64,000 nt of DNA from Minisyncoccota bacterium (GCA_018063165.1 JAGOQU010000001.1:35809-99808); one strand, 5' to 3'. Positions 10,014 through 50,318 are shown, counted from the first letter of the stretch. Notes: generated by a model not told the origin, from the letters alone. Program-made: numbers and translations.

Positions 10014-10370
10014 ATGGCAGAAAGTTATAAACATTTAGAAGTTTGGAAGGATGCAGTTATATTGGCGGAGAGTATTTATTTGATTACTAAAAAGTATCCA
10101 AAAGAGGAAACTTTTAACTGTGTTACTCAGTTACGTAGAGCTGTAGTTTCGGTCTCGTCAAATATTGCTGAAGGATCAAGTAGAAAATCAAAAAAAGATT
10201 TTTCTCGTTTTATAGAAATAGCAAGAGGCTCGTTATATGAAATAGAAAGTCTTATTGAAATTAGTTTAAAATTAGAATATATTACTGTAGAGACATATAC
10301 TCATTTAACAGAAGATATAAACAAATTAGGTGGCAAATTAGGAGCGTTTTATAATTATCTACAAAAATAA
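10014..10370 (+). CDS. four-helix-bundle protein (23S rRNA intervening-sequence protein / Avd-like family)
   Basis: Characteristic sequence KHLEVWKDAVILAESIYLITKKYPKEE...QLRRAVVSVSSNIAEGSSRKSKKDFSRFIEIARGSLYEIESLIEIS. Lies between pheS and pheT. Confidence 0.8.
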   Translation: MAESYKHLEVWKDAVILAESIYLITKKYPKEETFNCVTQLRRAVVSVSSNIAEGSSRKSKKDFSRFIEIARGSLYEIESLIEISLKLEYITVETYTHLTEDINKLGGKLGAFYNYLQK

Positions 10371-41968: not shown

Positions 41969-43912
41969 ATGCAAAAACTTTTTATTGGTTCTATTAGTCT
42001 TACATCTAAAAAAGATGGATATGTTCGTGTTAGTGAGTTAGAAAATGAAGGCGCTATTTTTGTTGATCATTCGCATCTCCATACAGCTCTTTCAGGAGAT
42101 ACGGTGGAAGTTGAACTTCTTGGAAAAAAGAAAAATATAAAAGGAGAAGATGAGCTTTATGGAAGTGTTTCTAAAGTAATAGAACGTGGAAGAAAAGGGT
42201 ATGCAGGTATTCTTGAAGAAGAAAATGGTATGGTATTTCTTGTTCCTGATGACAAACGTATGTATACCGATGTTATTATTCCAAATAATGCACGTTTAGA
42301 TTCTGAAATAGGACAAAAGGTTATTGTTACTATAACAAATTGGACTGATGCACAAAAGTCACCAATAGGTGCTGTAACTGCTATTTTGGGTAAACCTGGA
42401 GATAATAATGCAGAAATGCTTGCATATGCACTTGAACGTGGATTTAGTGATGTGCATACAAAAGAAGTAAATGAAGAAGCGGATGCTATTAAGATAAGGG
42501 GTATTTTAGATGAGGATAAACAGGGGCGTAGAGATTTTAGGAATGTTCCTACTTTTACTATTGATCCAATTGATGCAAAAGATTTTGATGATGCTATTTC
42601 ATTTAAAAAATTAGACAATGGTCATTATGAAGTCGGTGTTCATATCGCTGATGTGTCATATTATGTGCGTCCTGGTATGGCTCTTGATGAAGAGGCTATT
42701 GCAAGAGAAACATCTGTATATCTTGTGGATCGCTGTATTCCAATGCTTCCAGAGGTGCTTTCTAATGATCTCTGTTCTCTTGTACAAGGAGAAGATAGAT
42801 TGGTTATGTCGTGTGTTCTTGAGCTTGACGATGATGGTGTTGTGTACAACGAGTGGTACGGTAGATCGCTAATTAACTCCCATAGACGATATAGCTATGA
42901 AGATGCTCAAAGTACTCTCGATACCAAGCAGGGTGATTTTTATGAAGAACTTTCAATACTTAATACTATTGCTAAGAAGCTTTTAAAAGCAAGATTTGAT
43001 AATGGTGCACTTTCACTTGAAACCGAAGAAGTTAAATTTAAGTTAGATGAAAAAGGTGTACCTATAGATGTATATATTAAATCTCGTGGTGATACTCATA
43101 AGATGATAGAAGAGTATATGCTTTTAGCTAATAAATATGTAAGTAAATTTATTACAAAGAAGCAAGAAGAAAAGAATGGTGAAGGTAAAGGAATATGTGT
43201 ATACCGTATTCATGATAAACCAGATCCAGATAGAATGCATGATCTTGATTTGTACATAAAAGGTCTTGGATACACTGTTCGTTTCATGGATGGACTTATT
43301 CCTTCAAAAGATTTGAACGACCTACTTATTAAAATGGGAGACAGGCCAGAAAAAGCTTTGCTTCAAGTGCATATTACTCGAGCAATGGCAAAAGCTATAT
43401 ATAGTACAAAAAATGTTGGACATTATGGACTGGCTTTTGATTATTATTCTCATTTTACCTCACCGATTCGTCGTTATCCTGACGTACTTACTCATCGTCT
43501 TTTGATGCGTGTTATTGAAGGAGATTATCCACTTGAATCAGAGCGTGGTCTATATGAAAAGTTGTGTATGCAGGCATCTCGACGTGAAAAAGAAGCAAGC
43601 GATGCAGAAAGAGGAAGTATAAAATATAAACAAGTTGAGTATATGTCCTATCGTATTGGTCAAGAGTTTGATGGTATGGTAAGTGGTGTTTCTGAATGGG
43701 GTATTTTTGTTGAAGAAAAGAAAAGTAAATGTGAAGGTATGATACGACTTCGTGATCTTGGTGGTGATGATTTTTATAATTATGATCAAAAAGGGGGAAG
43801 GGTGTTTGGAGAAAAAACAGGTGTTGAATATAAAATAGGAACACCTGTTAAGATAAAAGTTAAAAATGCAAACCTTGAACTTAGAATGATTGATTATATT
43901 CTTGTTTTTTAA
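41969..43912 (+). CDS. rnr: ribonuclease R / RNase II-family 3'-5' exoribonuclease
   Basis: RNB domain (FTIDPIDAKDFDDAISF, HIADVSYYV, TSPIRRYPD) and C-terminal S1 domain. Start at internal MQKLF. Confidence 0.8.
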   Translation: MQKLFIGSISLTSKKDGYVRVSELENEGAIFVDHSHLHTALSGDTVEVELLGKKKNIKGEDELYGSVSKVIERGRKGYAGILEEENGMVFLVPDDKRMYTDVIIPNNARLDSEIGQKVIVTITNWTDAQKSPIGAVTAILGKPGDNNAEMLAYALERGFSDVHTKEVNEEADAIKIRGILDEDKQGRRDFRNVPTFTIDPIDAKDFDDAISFKKLDNGHYEVGVHIADVSYYVRPGMALDEEAIARETSVYLVDRCIPMLPEVLSNDLCSLVQGEDRLVMSCVLELDDDGVVYNEWYGRSLINSHRRYSYEDAQSTLDTKQGDFYEELSILNTIAKKLLKARFDNGALSLETEEVKFKLDEKGVPIDVYIKSRGDTHKMIEEYMLLANKYVSKFITKKQEEKNGEGKGICVYRIHDKPDPDRMHDLDLYIKGLGYTVRFMDGLIPSKDLNDLLIKMGDRPEKALLQVHITRAMAKAIYSTKNVGHYGLAFDYYSHFTSPIRRYPDVLTHRLLMRVIEGDYPLESERGLYEKLCMQASRREKEASDAERGSIKYKQVEYMSYRIGQEFDGMVSGVSEWGIFVEEKKSKCEGMIRLRDLGGDDFYNYDQKGGRVFGEKTGVEYKIGTPVKIKVKNANLELRMIDYILVF

Positions 43913-43970
43913 AAAGATAGCAAGAGTCATTTATATTGCTAACTTAGATCTAACACAGTATTATATAGAT

Positions 43971-44345
43971 ATGAAAAAGATAATGATTATTGAAGATGAT
44001 AAAGAGCTCCAGGAGATGTACAAGATTAATTTTGAATTAGCTGGATATAAAGTATTTCAAGAGATGGATGGTCTTGAAGGAATATCTACAATAGTAGACA
44101 AAAAACCAGATGTTATTCTTCTTGATATTAACATGCCAAATATGGATGGATTTGAATTTTTAAAAGTAATGAAAAATAATACAAGTATTAATATACCTGT
44201 TATTGTTTGTTCAGATATGTCTGATAAAAAAACATATGATAAATCAATAGAAGCAGGAGCTATTAGTTTTTTGTTGAAAGTAGATTATTCTGGTAAAGAA
44301 CTTGTTGAAAAAGTAGACCGTATTATTAAAGGTATCGATTTATAA
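43971..44345 (+). CDS. single-domain (receiver-only) response regulator, copy 1
   Basis: CheY-like REC (MKKIMIIEDDKELQ, phospho-acceptor D in ILLDINMPNMDG). No output domain. Start at the internal ATG of the track ORF. Confidence 0.8.
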   Translation: MKKIMIIEDDKELQEMYKINFELAGYKVFQEMDGLEGISTIVDKKPDVILLDINMPNMDGFEFLKVMKNNTSINIPVIVCSDMSDKKTYDKSIEAGAISFLLKVDYSGKELVEKVDRIIKGIDL

Positions 44346-44365
44346 AAAAGTTTATCTTTATTGAT

Positions 44366-44740
44366 ATGAAAAAAATAATGATTATCGAAGACGATAAAGA
44401 TCTTCAAGAAATATATAAAATTAATTTTGAGATGGTTGGGTATGAAGTAATGCAAGAATTTGATGGTTTAGATGGTATAGCAAGTGTAGTAGACAAAAAA
44501 CCAGATGCAATTCTGCTTGATATTAACATGCCAAATATGGATGGTTTTGCTTTCTTAAATGCTATAAATGATAATACAAGTATTAATATTCCAGTAATTG
44601 TATGTTCTAATCTCTCTGACCAAGAAACACAAAATAAAGCATTATCCTCAGGTGCTGCAGGTGTTTTGGTTAAAGTTGATTATTCCGGCAAGCAATTAGT
44701 TGAGAAAGTTGGTCATATTTTAAATGGTATTGCTGTATAA
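44366..44740 (+). CDS. single-domain (receiver-only) response regulator, copy 2
   Basis: About two-thirds identical to copy 1 over 124 aa. Confidence 0.8.
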   Translation: MKKIMIIEDDKDLQEIYKINFEMVGYEVMQEFDGLDGIASVVDKKPDAILLDINMPNMDGFAFLNAINDNTSINIPVIVCSNLSDQETQNKALSSGAAGVLVKVDYSGKQLVEKVGHILNGIAV

Positions 44741-44850
44741 TTTTTTGTTACTCACAGATATTTTTTGATATATAGAGGTATACTATACGTATCTGCATGA
44801 TACTTTGTACTATTATGTATTTTTAGAAAAGCTACTTATTATTTATTACT

Positions 44851-46419
44851 ATGGATATACTTGATTTTTTTTCTGGAATGCAATTTGATTTAATAGGTGT
44901 TTTGGTTGCTGTGACAGGTATTGGTGTTTTGGCAGGAATAGTTTTTTTTAGAAGTAAAAGTAGTATAACAAGTAGGTCTTTCTTTTTTTTCTCCTTTATT
45001 ACTATATTTTGGGGTCTTTCTAATTATTTTTTATATAAGTTTACAGATCAGAACTTAATTGTTCTTGCACTTCGTATTCATATATTTTTAACTATATGGC
45101 ATTCATATTCTTTCTTTCAGCTTGCTTATGTATTTCCTGATGAAAAAAAGGATTTACCTATTTGGCATAGATATGTTTTGTTGCCTGTTGCATTTTTTAC
45201 ATCAGCTCTTCTACTTATTCCTTTTGTTTTTACAAAAGTTAGTCACCTTGTTTCACTGTCAGAAATTACAGATCCAACCAAAAGTGATGGGATTATTTTA
45301 GGAGGAATACTCACATTCAGTTTCCTTATTTCTGGTCTCGATGTACTGTATCGCAAAATTGACCTTTCAAAAGGTGATCAAAGAAGACAGCTTATACTTA
45401 TGTTCACCGGAATGTCTCTTACTGCCGGATTGTTACTTTTGTTTAGTTTTGTACTTCCTATTGGTTTTCATAATTATGATTTCGTACCATTTGGAGCACT
45501 TTTTATTTTTCCTGTTATCGTGTTTACGGCATATGCAATTTATATTGTAGAATTGTTCCATGTAAAAAATATTTTTGCTGGAATTTTTACATTTTTTCTC
45601 TGTGTTTTTTCTTTAGTAGAATTGATTATTTCAGATAACATTGAACAACTTCTTCTTAGGATATTAGTGTTTATACTTACTCTTGTGCTTAGTATACAGC
45701 TAGTAAGAAATACTTTTGAAATAGAATTGGCTAATGAACAGAAGTCAGAACTTATGACATTTGCTACGCATGAGATAAGAACACCAATTACTGTCATGCG
45801 TGGGTACGCATCTATATTACTTGATGGTGATAAAGGGCCAATTACTCCACCTGTTGTTGACTTACTTCAGAAGATTATGATTTCAGGAAATGAAGTGATT
45901 TCTCTTCTTTCTCAATATTTAAATAAATCAAAAATTGAATTGGGTCAACTCCAATATGTTTTTTTGAAAGTTGATGTTGTTCAACTTGTGAATGAAGTTC
46001 TTGGTACATTTCAGGTTAACGCTCAGCAGAAAAATCTATATTTAACAGAAGTTCTTCCTACACGAGAAAAGATTTTTATTAATGCTGATCAGGGTAAATT
46101 AAAAGAAGTTATTATTAATTTGATTGATAATTCTATAAAATACACACAAAAAGGTTCTGTTAGTGTCTCAGTAGAAAAACATAATACAAAAGTTATTATA
46201 AAAGTATCAGATACTGGTGTTGGTATAGAAGAAGATACAATGAAAATTCTTTTTAGAGAATTTTCTCGAGCAGATATACAAAAAGTTAATATTTTGGGAA
46301 CAGGGCTTGGACTTTATTTAGCTAAAATATTTGTCACAGCTCATTCGGGTAGAATATGGGCTGAGTCAGAAGGAAAAGGTAATGGAGCTCAATTTTATAT
46401 TGAATTACCTGAAGCATAA
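44851..46419 (+). CDS. sensor histidine kinase with an N-terminal polytopic (about 7 TM) membrane sensor region
   Basis: HisKA (FATHEIRTPITVMRGYASIL) and HATPase_c (LIDNSIKYT, SDTGVGI, GTGLGLYLAKIF). Confidence 0.8.
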   Translation: MDILDFFSGMQFDLIGVLVAVTGIGVLAGIVFFRSKSSITSRSFFFFSFITIFWGLSNYFLYKFTDQNLIVLALRIHIFLTIWHSYSFFQLAYVFPDEKKDLPIWHRYVLLPVAFFTSALLLIPFVFTKVSHLVSLSEITDPTKSDGIILGGILTFSFLISGLDVLYRKIDLSKGDQRRQLILMFTGMSLTAGLLLLFSFVLPIGFHNYDFVPFGALFIFPVIVFTAYAIYIVELFHVKNIFAGIFTFFLCVFSLVELIISDNIEQLLLRILVFILTLVLSIQLVRNTFEIELANEQKSELMTFATHEIRTPITVMRGYASILLDGDKGPITPPVVDLLQKIMISGNEVISLLSQYLNKSKIELGQLQYVFLKVDVVQLVNEVLGTFQVNAQQKNLYLTEVLPTREKIFINADQGKLKEVIINLIDNSIKYTQKGSVSVSVEKHNTKVIIKVSDTGVGIEEDTMKILFREFSRADIQKVNILGTGLGLYLAKIFVTAHSGRIWAESEGKGNGAQFYIELPEA

Positions 46420-46437
46420 TTATTTTTATTTGTCTGT

Positions 46438-46815
46438 ATGAAAAAAATAATGATTATAGAAGATAATAAAGATATACAAAATATATATAAACATAGTTTT
46501 GAAAAAGCTGGGTATGAAGTTATTATTGAAGATAATGGATTAGAAGGGATCAATAATGTTGTTCAAAAAATGCCAGATGTTATTTTGCTTGACCTTATGA
46601 TGCCTAAAATGGATGGATTTGAATTTTTAAAATTAATGAAGCAAAATTCTACACTGAATATTCCTGTTATCGTGTGTTCAAACATATCTGATAACGAAAT
46701 ATATGCAAAAGTTATGGATTTTGGCGCTGCTGCTATAATTTTAAAAGTAGACTATTCTGGAAAACAACTTGTTGAAAAGGTTGAATATATTATGAAAGAT
46801 TTACATAAAATCTAG
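46438..46815 (+). CDS. single-domain (receiver-only) response regulator, copy 3
   Basis: Paralog of copies 1 and 2 (MKKIMIIEDNKDIQ, LLDLMMPKMDG). Confidence 0.8.
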   Translation: MKKIMIIEDNKDIQNIYKHSFEKAGYEVIIEDNGLEGINNVVQKMPDVILLDLMMPKMDGFEFLKLMKQNSTLNIPVIVCSNISDNEIYAKVMDFGAAAIILKVDYSGKQLVEKVEYIMKDLHKI

Positions 46816-48428: not shown

Positions 48429-48641
48429 ATGTATATAAAAATAAAAGTTGTGACAGATGCTAAACAAGAAAAAATAGAAAAAATTGAAGAAGATTCTTGG
48501 CGTATTTGGGTTACGTTTCCTGCAGAAAATAATGCAGCTAATAGAAGAATTTTGGAAATACTTCATAATTCTTTTGAAGATAAAGCTATTAGAATAGTCA
48601 GTGGACATCATTCACCTTCAAAGATTGTGAGTATCGTCTAA
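48429..48641 (+). CDS. DUF167 (YggU-like) family small protein
   Basis: IKIKVVTDAKQEKIEK...ANRRILEILHNSF...IRIVSGHHSPSKIV matches the DUF167 pattern (..GkAN..l...L......i..GhtS..K). Confidence 0.55.
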   Translation: MYIKIKVVTDAKQEKIEKIEEDSWRIWVTFPAENNAANRRILEILHNSFEDKAIRIVSGHHSPSKIVSIV

Positions 48642-48675
48642 TTTTGATAGAATGATCTGTATTGTTTTAACAAAA

Positions 48676-48751
48676 GCCGTTGTAGCTCAGTTGGTAGAGC
48701 ACGTCATTGGTAATGACGAGGTCAGCAGTTCAATCCTGCTCAACGGCTCCA
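48676..48751 (+). tRNA. tRNA-Thr (anticodon GGT), CCA encoded
   Basis: Acceptor GCCGTTG/CAACGGC. Anticodon stem CGTCA/TGACG with loop TTGGTAA. T-arm CAGCA-GTTCAAT-CCTGCTC. 3' TCCA. Confidence 0.85.
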
Positions 48752-48902
48752 AAAAAGTTGAGCTCAAAAATTACGAAGTGATTTTTGAGTAGACATGAAC
48801 TGCTTCATGTCTAACAGGATTGAATATGAGGTCACGAAACTAATTCTGACAAACGAAGTGAGGAAGTAGTTTCGTGACCAATCCTGCTCAACGGCTCCAA
48901 AA
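48731..48902 (+). repeat. 24-nt direct repeat of the tRNA-Thr(GGT) 3' end (48731-48754 and 48879-48902) bracketing a 124-bp insert with two hairpins
   Basis: CAATCCTGCTCAACGGCTCCAAAA occurs twice. The insert contains TAGACATGAA-CTGC-TTCATGTCTA, GGTCACGAAACTA...TAGTTTCGTGACC, CAGGATTGAA (inverse of the tRNA T-arm) and two AACGAAGTG motifs. Confidence 0.7.
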
Positions 48903-49369: not shown

Positions 49370-49990
49370 GTGGGTGTTTTTCTTTCAACATTATTTGATA
49401 AAAGATCAGAGTCTTTGAAATCTTTTGATGTTCTTCCAAAATTTCCAGAAGGGTGTAATTCTTTTGAAGAATTTCTTGATGTTTGTAAAAAACATGAGGG
49501 GAAACCTTTTGTTATGGTGGTTGATAAATCAAGTAAAGAAGGATTTGCTTCAGTCGAAAGATTTTATTTTTTTGGAACAGTCGCTGTTAAAGATGATGGC
49601 TATTTTGGTTTAAAATGTTTTACACCAAGAATGATTAGTACATATATACCTTTTTTCTTTCATGAAATACATGCTATAGATATAGGTATTGACGACTCTC
49701 TCCCATATGAGTGTAAGATCGCCTCTATGTCGTTTGATATAGAGTTTTTTGAAACAATGCTTGTCGAACATTTTTGTCCTTATTATCCAATTGTTCTAAA
49801 AAATCGTGAACATGATTTATACATGATGACACTTCTTGGATATGTACATGTGCTTACTGAGTCAATGAAGCATCATCCTTTTTTATTACTTAATAAAGAA
49901 ATGAATGCTATTGTATCTTTTTTAGAAAGAAAAGATAAAGAAAGCAAAGACAAAGACAAGGAAAAAAAAGATAAAAAAGTACCTGTGTGA
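49370..49990 (+). CDS. hypothetical protein (GTG start per track) with a Lys/Asp-rich tail
   Basis: ORF only. Confidence 0.4.
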   Translation: MGVFLSTLFDKRSESLKSFDVLPKFPEGCNSFEEFLDVCKKHEGKPFVMVVDKSSKEGFASVERFYFFGTVAVKDDGYFGLKCFTPRMISTYIPFFFHEIHAIDIGIDDSLPYECKIASMSFDIEFFETMLVEHFCPYYPIVLKNREHDLYMMTLLGYVHVLTESMKHHPFLLLNKEMNAIVSFLERKDKESKDKDKEKKDKKVPV

Positions 49991-50069
49991 TTTTAAAATC
50001 CAAGCTATACATGCTTGGATTTTTATATAACAGTATCGAATTGTTTATGATAGAATGGTTTAATACTTA

Positions 50070-50142
50070 GCCAGAGTAGCTCAGTTGGTAGAGCATCTCA
50101 CTCGTAACGAGAAGGTCGTGAGTTCGATCCTCGCCTCTGGCT
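50070..50142 (+). tRNA. tRNA-Thr (anticodon CGT)
   Basis: Acceptor GCCAGAG/CTCTGGC. D-arm GCTC/GAGC. Anticodon loop CTCGTAA. T-arm GTGAG-TTCGATC-CTCGC. Discriminator T. Confidence 0.8.
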
Positions 50143-50318
50143 CAGAATAAACGAAGTGTTTTTGAGACAGAGGAGAAATCAAACTGCCGATTAGCAAATC
50201 GCGTCGAGAGACGTAACTTTTTCGTCGAGGATCGAATACGGGTCGGAAAAGCTTCTCGAGCAGAGCGAGAGCTTTTGTGACAGATCCTCGCCTCTGGCTC
50301 AGAATAAACGAAGTGTTT
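50126..50318 (+). repeat. 36-nt direct repeat (tRNA-Thr(CGT) last 17 nt plus 19 nt downstream; 50126-50161 and 50283-50318) bracketing a 121-bp GC-richer insert
   Basis: GATCCTCGCCTCTGGCTCAGAATAAACGAAGTGTTT occurs twice. The insert begins with a degenerate inverted copy of the tRNA 3' half (TGAGACAGAGGAGAAATCAAACT against revcomp TGAGCCAGAGGCGAGGATCGAACT) and contains hairpins around palindromic AAGCTT and CTCGAG. Confidence 0.7.

Follow-up and report, generated by a model that had tools for sequence, protein, structure and literature searches.

We describe a previously uncatalogued family of cloverleaf-folding units that lies behind tRNA-Thr genes and comes, goes and stacks up in related species. 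The family was recognized in a 64,000-nucleotide stretch of a Minisyncoccota bacterium genome (GCA_018063165.1, JAGOQU010000001.1:35809-99808; hereafter the window), in which the tRNA-Thr(CGT) gene (locus 2) and, 1.4 kb upstream, the tRNA-Thr(GGT) gene (locus 1) are followed by inserts of the same layout, each enclosed by a duplication of the tRNA 3′ end. The reading we tentatively favour is that the units are miniature, non-autonomous, non-coding integrative cassettes that recombine into the T-loop-to-3′-end segment of tRNA-Thr genes in one clade of Patescibacteria.

Both tRNA genes are called by ARAGORN and Rfam and are intact beside the repeats. Each repeat starts inside the T-loop, runs through the tRNA 3′ end and continues into the trailer. 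At locus 2, the two identical 36-nt copies, GATCCTCGCCTCTGGCTCAGAATAAACGAAGTGTTT, comprise the final 17-18 nt of the tRNA and 18-19 nt of trailer, with the motif AACGAAGTG at 50150-50158, and they enclose an insert of 121 bp (50162-50282). At locus 1, an exact 24-nt repeat encloses 124 bp. This is the arrangement that an earlier note on this DNA had described, and its gene call, repeat, insert sizes and spacing all hold. None of 100 shuffles gave a match comparable to the 36-nt repeat with 3 mismatches allowed, no further repeat copies occur in the window even at 3 mismatches, and the window's remaining three tRNA genes (Thr-TGT, Ser, Gln) have no 3′-end duplication. The locus-2 insert is, as had also been noticed, richer in G+C than its surroundings (47.9%, compared with 32.7% for the window and 24-28% for flanking intergenic DNA), a value reached by 0.9% of 121-nt windows.

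The structure is carried by independent assemblies and is therefore real rather than a product of assembly. Logan contig L004 covers both loci and L019 covers locus 1, each with the same structure. The assembly of a metagenome-assembled genome in NCBI (GCA_017992935.1) breaks here: its contigs JAGONQ010000007.1 and JAGONQ010000033.1 end at window positions 50146 and 50290, inside the two 36-nt copies, and the 121-bp insert is absent from its contigs. Breaks within these tRNAs also occur in Logan contigs, since species that are found together have tRNAs of identical sequence. Chance and assembly artefact are both excluded by the exact repeats, a chance expectation of zero, and recurrence in independent assemblies and species.

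Judged by pairwise alignment, the two inserts are homologous, scoring 46 against 15.5 ± 5.2 for shuffled sequences. Both have the left end ACGAAGTG(A)TTTTTGAG, an inverted copy of the local T-loop and T-stem that is exact over 10-11 nt (50226-50236, 11 nt, at locus 2; 48815-48824 at locus 1), the junction GAATAYGRGGTC, and a right end, TTTYGTGAC[C/A], directly before the distal repeat. The proposal of a shared mechanism or element family rather than chance is thus borne out: the similarity extends past the short motif, and further units lie behind tRNA-Thr in at least eight other assemblies. The inverted T-arm feature attributed to both loci is likewise real and covaries with the tRNA, although at locus 2 the earlier note had overlooked the exact 11-nt copy. 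It had instead read the opening of the insert as a degenerate inverted copy of the tRNA 3′ half. This stands for TGAGACAGAGG, which complements the acceptor 3′ strand at 10 of 11 positions, but not for the next ~11 nt, which form the 5′ strand of hairpin B and hold no T-arm copy. The AAGCTT and CTCGAG palindromes are present too, but merely as parts of one imperfect hairpin (hairpin C).

From the tRNA outward, the units share one order: palindrome/P1, hairpin A (only in units of the 'GGT layout'), hairpin B, the 5′ strand of P3, junction J, hairpin C and the distal repeat. In the palindrome, the acceptor 3′ strand and an A-run are linked over a small apex to their inverted copy, which is the P1 5′ strand. 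This apex is in most cases C-GAA-G or GCGAAGC, which forms an extraordinarily stable DNA mini-hairpin (PMC13037366; PMC3201870). Hairpin B has eight different stem sequences, all fully paired, and a loop that is nearly always CTGC, while hairpin C combines a conserved base (GGTCGCG/YGTGACC) with a variable top that is often CGAAG-tipped. The motif AACGAAGTG, common to both loci, is explained as the C-GAA-G apex of such recurrent hairpins. In the distal repeat, the T-part pairs with P3 and the acceptor part can pair with P1, giving a cloverleaf in which P3 is stacked on P1. A tRNA/anti-tRNA duplex in read-through RNA, which the earlier note had predicted, may form; the inverted copies pair at least equally well with the distal repeat copy, which yields the closed cloverleaf.

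Locus 2 carries every element by which the family is defined: hairpin B, the inverted T-arm copy, AATAYGG, hairpin C with its GGTCG/YGTGAC base, and the T-loop-to-3′-end copy. Its hairpin B contains ~30 extra nucleotides (50188-50217) that are not in the orthologous units of related loci L042, L045 and L050 and that form the mini-hairpins CGATT-AGCA-AATCG and CGTC-GAGA-GACG. Its hairpin C is terminator-like, with a TTTTGTG tail. A mini-hairpin of the form CGATTAG[C/T/G]AAATCG is common to otherwise different units (window 50189-50202, L002 ~107-120 and L045 5756-5770), and this recurrence suggests insertion or exchange of sub-units. Coordinates are collected in Table 1.

Table 1. Features of the two tRNA-Thr loci (window positions) and P3 pairing partners in the family.
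Feature	Position	Strand	Sequence or remark
Promoter-like site upstream of tRNA-Thr(GGT)	48625..48653	+	extended -10
tRNA-Thr(GGT), sister locus 1	48676..48751	+	ARAGORN, Rfam
24-nt repeat, proximal copy, locus 1	48731..48754	+	exact
Whole unit, locus 1	48757..48878	+	
P1 5′ strand, locus 1	48757-48762	+	GTTGAG
Hairpin A, locus 1	48763-48789	+	apex ACGAAGTG
Hairpin B, locus 1	48790-48813	+	loop CTGC
P3 5′ strand, locus 1	48815-48822	+	CAGGATTG
Junction J, locus 1	48823-48829	+	
Hairpin C, locus 1	48830-48879	+	loop with second ACGAAGTG
24-nt repeat, distal copy, locus 1	48879..48902	+	exact
Promoter-like site upstream of tRNA-Thr(CGT)	50027..50056	+	extended -10 (TG-n-TAGAAT); consensus match only
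tRNA-Thr(CGT), locus 2	50070..50143	+	no CCA encoded; ARAGORN, Rfam
36-nt repeat, proximal copy, locus 2	50126..50161	+	T-loop position 57 to tRNA 3′ end, plus trailer with C-GAA-G apex
P1 5′ strand, locus 2	50163..50173	+	TGAGACAGAGG; 10/11 inverted copy of acceptor 3′ strand; can pair with either repeat copy
Hairpin B region, locus 2	50174..50224	+	5′ strand AGAAATCAAA, loop CTGC
P3 5′ strand, locus 2	50226..50233	+	CGAGGATC; exact inverted T-loop/T-stem copy; pairs with 50283-50290
Junction J, locus 2	50234..50241	+	GAATACGG; unpaired; family consensus AATAYGG
Hairpin C, locus 2	50242..50281	+	base GTCGG.../...GTGAC with G.T wobble; stem AAAAGCTTCTCG/CGAGAGCTTTT
36-nt repeat, distal copy, locus 2	50283..50318	+	P3 3′ strand 50283-50290, P1 3′ strand 50291-50301, then half of trailer hairpin
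P3 5′ strand / core T-part, common GGT tRNA			CAGGATTG / CAATCCTG
P3 5′ strand / core T-part, window CGT			CGAGGATC / GATCCTCG
P3 5′ strand / core T-part, L046 CGT			CAGAATCG / CGATTCTG
P3 5′ strand / core T-part, L045 and L050 GGT variant			GGGAATCG / CGATTCCC

The fold is recovered by several routes. Unconstrained minimum-free-energy folds of five units all give the cloverleaf junction, with fold Z-scores of about -9 for the GGT-type units of locus 1, L016a and L015, -2.4 for locus 2 and -2.6 for L014. RNAalifold on six units returns the same five helices, with compensatory change in 21 of 51 pairs. Paired cells amount to 97.0% and 94.2% in two alignments, a share that is 34-46% after sliding of the partners. 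Changes on both sides affect 21 and 19 pairs (1-5 after sliding), and 0 of 500 shuffles reach the observed values. A covariance model, R1, covers hairpin B to the core and was built on ten units that did not include locus 2. With it, locus 2 reaches 58.2 bits (E about 1e-14, a rough value) and locus 1 reaches 96 bits; the units of L014 and L002, both irregular, and one decayed L045 unit are recovered as well. In an unfiltered search of the 64-kb window no other match rises above 17.6 bits, and the strongest of these weak ones is the reverse strand of unit 1. R1 matches only beside tRNA-Thr genes in the 159 kb of window and related loci.

This compensatory evolution bears on whether the inserts could be neutral by-products of template switching at a stable GAA mini-hairpin, snap-back copying having produced first an inverted and then a direct duplication of the tRNA 3′ end, with neither function nor mobility. 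The X - X′ - X arrangement does resemble switching products, and in three units (L016-CGT, L045-GGT and L050-GGT) a perfect 30-bp palindrome unites the tRNA 3′ end with its inverted copy. Such copying, however, explains neither the non-tRNA modules conserved across species and behind both tRNAs (hairpin B with CTGC, J, the base of hairpin C and YGTGACC) nor their compensatory changes, and we consider it very improbable.

The fold also has a preferred strand. In five units the + strand fold is more stable than that of the - strand by 4-10 kcal/mol. A curated helix table of 376 positions from 11 units contains 352 Watson-Crick pairs, 13 G.T wobbles on the + strand and 11 mismatches, whereas none of the 376 positions would wobble on the - strand; the 13 wobbles represent perhaps 4-5 independent events, one of them conserved in 9 of 10 units. 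On the + strand, GC skew stays positive along the whole window (+0.10 to +0.21), and nearly all genes lie on +. From this uniform skew and gene strand, the window lies on one replichore with + as the leading-strand sequence, and hence the + strand is the template of the lagging strand.

Beyond the window, at least 13 further units were found in about nine related Patescibacteria assemblies of Parcubacteria/Paceibacteria type, labelled Nomurabacteria, Paceibacterota, Pacebacteria, Parcubacteria and, in one case, 'Gracilibacteria'. The survey covered about nine genomes, the relatives being located by junction patterns, in one metagenome scan and one genome scan, and by synteny (trmD - DUF167 - tRNA-Thr) through TrmD homologues; a pattern scan of genome contigs with the locus-2 junction gave no match. 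Unit-bearing loci are L013/L016, L014, L015, L042, L045, L046 and L050. Units measure ~100-170 nt, their repeats 7-51 nt, and every one lies 3′ of, and co-oriented with, tRNA-Thr(GGT) or tRNA-Thr(CGT), including at L050 with its inverted CGT gene. The window, L042, L045 and L050 have CGT units that look orthologous. Elsewhere units are missing: at L049 only 20 nt separate the two Thr genes, the second of which is directly followed by the next open reading frame (ORF), and at L046 the CGT gene begins 2 nt after a GGT gene that has no unit. L013/L016 instead carries two identical tandem units with a 166-nt period, the last repeat being decayed, and the distal units and repeats of L045, L046 and L050 are truncated. 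Where repeat copies differ, the changes are always in the distal copy (L004, L015, L016, L042-CGT, L045, L046 and L050). In a more distant relative, L014, positions 784-1200 (3′ of tRNA-Thr(CGT)) hold 16S-rRNA-like fragments, among them agctagttggtaaggtaatggcttaccaaggc and gcaggattagataccct; the stretch could be chimeric or a real rRNA-derived insert.

Inverted copies complement the local tRNA throughout, P3 following the T-part of each tRNA (Table 1) and P1 varying accordingly. The modules between them are exchanged. The CGT gene of L046 carries a unit of GGT layout, with the hairpin A, B and C types of GGT genes elsewhere, and its inverted copies are re-matched; a hairpin-C variant, CAGACTTCTATTTTTGTAATCAAA, is common to L042-CGT and L045-GGT. 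By TrmD identity L045 is closer to L042 (90%) than to L050 (75%), yet its GGT tRNA variant and unit type are those of L050, so that the tRNA-GGT-plus-unit type is incongruent with TrmD similarity. The tRNA-Thr(GGT) genes of L045 (5501-5574) and L042 (5464-5539) differ in both halves, and those of L045 and L050 (4975-5048) are nearly identical, which suggests that the tRNA and its unit were replaced as one block. In L016 and L014 the functional gene ends in GGCTCA (no CCA) and the distal copy in GGCTCC, as in unit-free GGT genes. This pattern would fit a unit-borne 3′ end that completes the tRNA and displaces the former end; it lends weak support, since the difference is a single base.

Variation also occurs between strains. 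In Logan contig L002 (SRR11088391; positions 1-126 correspond to window 48704-48829), the flanks are 99.6% identical to the window and the left 75 nt of unit 1 are replaced. The replacement contains a 22-bp perfect palindrome, a hairpin B with another stem (GAAGCCAC-CTGC-GTGGCTTC) and an inverted T copy, GAGAATCG, that has no match to its tRNA. L002 carries a strain-level alternative unit at locus 1, as would be expected of integrative DNA at a tRNA hotspot. Gene content beside these tRNAs varies between close relatives.

We favour the integrative reading because of the repeats of the tRNA 3′ target, the presence and absence of units, the arrays with distal decay, the module exchange and the alternative unit of L002. 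The unit would carry its own T-loop-to-3′-end tRNA segment (the core) together with inverted copies of it. Campbell-type recombination between this core and the same segment of a tRNA gene would insert the unit, whose core would then complete the tRNA and push the prior 3′ end beyond the unit, where it forms the distal repeat. Tandem arrays would arise from further rounds of insertion or from unequal exchange, and their distal, older copies would decay. The recombining form would probably be a folded single strand (the + strand, as lagging-strand template) in which the core, paired with its inverted copies, gives a duplex mimicking the double-stranded tRNA-gene target; this folded strand would be the substrate of a recombinase provided in trans. 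The recombination, its enzyme and the single-stranded intermediate are steps that we infer. The fold, the GAA apices and the lagging-strand position suggest, but do not show, that the unit is a folded single-stranded recombination substrate. A more specific version, which we regard as doubtful, is by analogy with CTX phage and attC: a gene-less ~150-nt mobile cassette would fold transiently as a single strand (circular single-stranded DNA or lagging-strand template), its cloverleaf would be a duplex replica of the tRNA-Thr T-arm and acceptor, and a tyrosine recombinase of the host or of a phage would accept this replica and insert it through single-strand exchange for replication to resolve, the system having been retargeted to a tRNA gene in the streamlined Patescibacteria genomes.

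Several observations weigh against integration. No excised or circular form, full-length parent element or recombinase was seen in the loci, IMG/VR or the phage and plasmid collections. Inverted copies follow the local tRNA in every case, although that tRNA varies from species to species; horizontal spread of a fixed element is therefore insufficient, and co-evolution, templated correction or capture of new cores is needed. Repeat lengths of 7-51 nt are unlike a fixed crossover or identity block. In the near-identical strain L009 a candidate empty site was found, but all its 31-mers also occur in the occupied genome; since the 36-nt repeat exceeds k (31), L009 may be an assembly artefact, and we have downgraded it as proof of an empty site. 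Finally, P1 of L045-CGT pairs at 10 of 11 positions with its diverged distal copy and at ~7 of 11 with the tRNA, and J and hairpin C are still conserved in old, decayed units. Together these point to selection on the fold beyond a recombination site, which fits an RNA function equally.

Such a function is the core of the main competing explanation: the unit may be a structured, tRNA-like non-coding RNA that is co-transcribed from the tRNA promoter and has a role in processing or stability, or else lures a tRNA-binding enzyme as a decoy. P1 would be its acceptor-like and P3 its T-arm-like helix, both built on the duplicated tRNA 3′ end, and inheritance would be mostly vertical; arrays and absences would stem from local tandem duplication, from gene conversion with the tRNA and from loss now and then. 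Units invariably share the strand of the tRNA and lie directly downstream of it, but this co-orientation does not discriminate, because carrying a tRNA 3′ end forces it. Promoter-like sites lie upstream of both tRNA genes, the motif TGATAGAAT at the CGT site recurring upstream of the GGT gene and in relatives (a consensus match only), and no convincing terminator separates tRNA and unit at locus 1. Strong covariation with a G.U pair conserved in 9 of 10 units, conserved unpaired motifs (the CUGC loop and the AAUAYGG junction), a wobble asymmetry that favours the transcribed strand, the covariation of L045-CGT P1 with the distal copy rather than the tRNA, and the seemingly orthologous CGT units all speak for such an RNA. 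Conversely, P1 closure is lost in the otherwise conserved units of L045-GGT, L050-GGT and L042-CGT, units are absent from the close relatives L049 and (at GGT) L046, and unit types are swapped between GGT and CGT genes incongruently with TrmD similarity. Moreover, C-GAA-G triloop apices are a stability motif of DNA, not RNA (PMC13037366), no Rfam family corresponds to the unit, and an RNA fold has no need of exact identity between distal repeat and tRNA. We regard this explanation as possible, if somewhat on the unlikely side.

Searches for genes and parent elements bear on a further alternative, that each insert is the scar of a larger element such as a prophage, plasmid or island, whose att-proximal arms remain between attL and attR after deletion of the interior. 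Partial-tRNA direct repeats are the classic mark of tRNA-integrating elements, gene content beside these tRNAs varies between relatives, and serial insertions at one tRNA gene are documented to displace older remnants, leaving decaying partial tRNAs outward (Islander, PMC4383910; tycheposons, 10.1101/2020.12.28.424599). The units, however, number at least 13 across about nine genomes and are all compact, gene-free and of similar size, enclosing no gene remnants; the 121- and 124-bp inserts contain no plausible ORF. No integrase or phage gene is annotated near these loci, and no integrase or recombinase was found among the Pfam-annotated neighbours of any locus or the ten window ORFs (roughly 300 aa) scanned. 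IMG/VR gave nothing relevant for five patterns (four P-arm/core junctions and one conserved junction), the 21 matches to a degenerate junction pattern being all chance ones inside high-G+C phage ORFs. BLAST of the inserts against phage and plasmid collections gave no match, and Rfam 15 returned tRNA matches only (window 46-53 kb at E<=1; six related loci at the gathering threshold). No cognate autonomous element was found in the loci or collections searched. Independent random deletions, moreover, would not keep a covarying multi-helix fold. Scars and template switching alike fit the data less well, and we judge the former unlikely.

Known classes of small mobile DNA were also considered and rejected. 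A miniature inverted-repeat transposable element does not fit, for there are no terminal inverted repeats, the direct repeats are 7-51 nt of tRNA sequence, and R1 copies lie only beside tRNA-Thr. IS200/IS605-derived palindrome-associated transposable elements (PATEs) and repetitive extragenic palindromes (REP/REPIN) are set aside on similar grounds: each unit lies between long repeats of tRNA origin, and copies were seen only at tRNA-Thr. The integron attC consensus RYYYAAC...GTTRRRY fits locus 1 alone (GCTCAAC/GTTGAGC), a coincidence of the acceptor sequence; locus 2 (CCTCTGGCTCA/TGAGACAGAGG) misfits, the fold is a multi-helix junction and no integrase was found. A retroelement-like primer-binding site is refuted by the inverted copy, which runs into the genomic trailer and not into CCA. 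Mutagenesis of adenines as in diversity-generating retroelements (DGRs) was set aside, no reverse transcriptase being seen and the G/C-to-A differences fitting AT-biased decay. At window ~10014-10370 (+), a small gene between pheS and pheT matches Pfam 23S_rRNA_IVP / bAvd, a four-helix-bundle family to which DGR accessory proteins belong, and no reverse transcriptase was seen nearby.

Nor is AACGAAGTG a genome-wide signal. There are ten copies of ACGAAGTG in the window against 1.2 expected, and the six outside the units (14343, 20874, 21742, 35399, 45068 and 47848) are all in ORFs, with no common flanks; AACGAAGTG is therefore taken to be nothing more than a hairpin apex. Between the two tRNA-Thr genes lies a 206-aa ORF (49370-49990, +), which was rejected as 'cargo' because it is conserved in L042 and simply fast-evolving. 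It has no Pfam match, and its sole match in a search of 5.8 billion proteins is a 97% relative. Its identity to the syntenic L042 ORF is 57% (TrmD, 87%), and no such ORF lies between the tRNAs in L045, L046 and L049; by these comparisons it is a fast-evolving, patchy gene. Elsewhere in the window (43890-46815), three paralogous single-domain response-regulator genes (69-73% nucleotide identity) surround one HisKA/HATPase kinase; relatives have two or three such paralogues.

Among known systems, tRNA-targeting islands and prophages, Islander elements and the tycheposons of Prochlorococcus resemble the units in inserting from T-loop to 3′ end, regenerating the gene and displacing a partial tRNA as a distal repeat. 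Unlike islands of tyrosine integrases, the units are 100-170 nt long without integrase, cargo or ORF, hold inverted copies of their target within a conserved, covarying cloverleaf, and occur so far only at tRNA-Thr(GGT/CGT) in one Patescibacteria clade. Cis-mobilizable elements (CIMEs) are att-flanked, integrase-less derivatives of integrative and conjugative or integrative and mobilizable elements (ICEs or IMEs; reviewed in PMC5704250). Like the units they are non-autonomous, carry attL/attR-like repeats at a tRNA 3′ end, presumably use a recombinase in trans and accrete in tandem. CIMEs are, however, kilobase-scale deletion derivatives of identifiable ICEs, whereas no parent element was found for the units, which form a conserved structured module and not a remnant.

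Integron attC sites offer a precedent for recombination of folded single-stranded substrates (PMC4792948), and attC cassettes, like the units, are small, gene-free and arrayed beside a fixed site. Both attC and CTX attP share with the units a strand-biased, covarying fold of variable sequence that can form a duplex mimic of a double-stranded target. For the CTX phage, the folded single-stranded attP(+) is the substrate used by XerCD. The units differ from attC in that no integron integrase or attI was found, in folding as a multi-helix junction and not a single bulged hairpin, and in having repeats of 7-51 nt of tRNA where attC has a GTT triplet; the R′′/R′ core (RYYYAAC/GTTRRRY) is no family feature because it is absent at locus 2. 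Likeness to tRNA itself is of another kind. Examples of tRNA-like structures include mascRNA downstream of MALAT1, viral 3′ tRNA-like structures and bacterial YrlA. Such structures are processed by tRNA enzymes (PMC8127992). Like them, the units have a predicted cloverleaf-like fold, with an acceptor-like helix on a T-arm-like one and the tRNA's own 3′ end (with CCA at locus 1). In the units, however, a ~50-nt insertion replaces the T-loop, the register of the 'acceptor' helix is shifted and P1 has decayed in many cases.

The units have practical consequences. They break short-read assemblies exactly at tRNA-Thr loci and can be mistaken for prophage scars; with covariance model R1, a clade-wide survey is straightforward. 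Patescibacteria (the candidate phyla radiation) have tiny genomes and are generally considered poor in mobile elements. If the integrative reading is true, gene-free cassettes defined by structure at tRNA-Thr would be a new minimal form of site-specific mobile DNA, and their turnover a source of local genome plasticity. If instead the units act as RNA, they would represent a new RNA class tied to tRNA-Thr biology in Patescibacteria.

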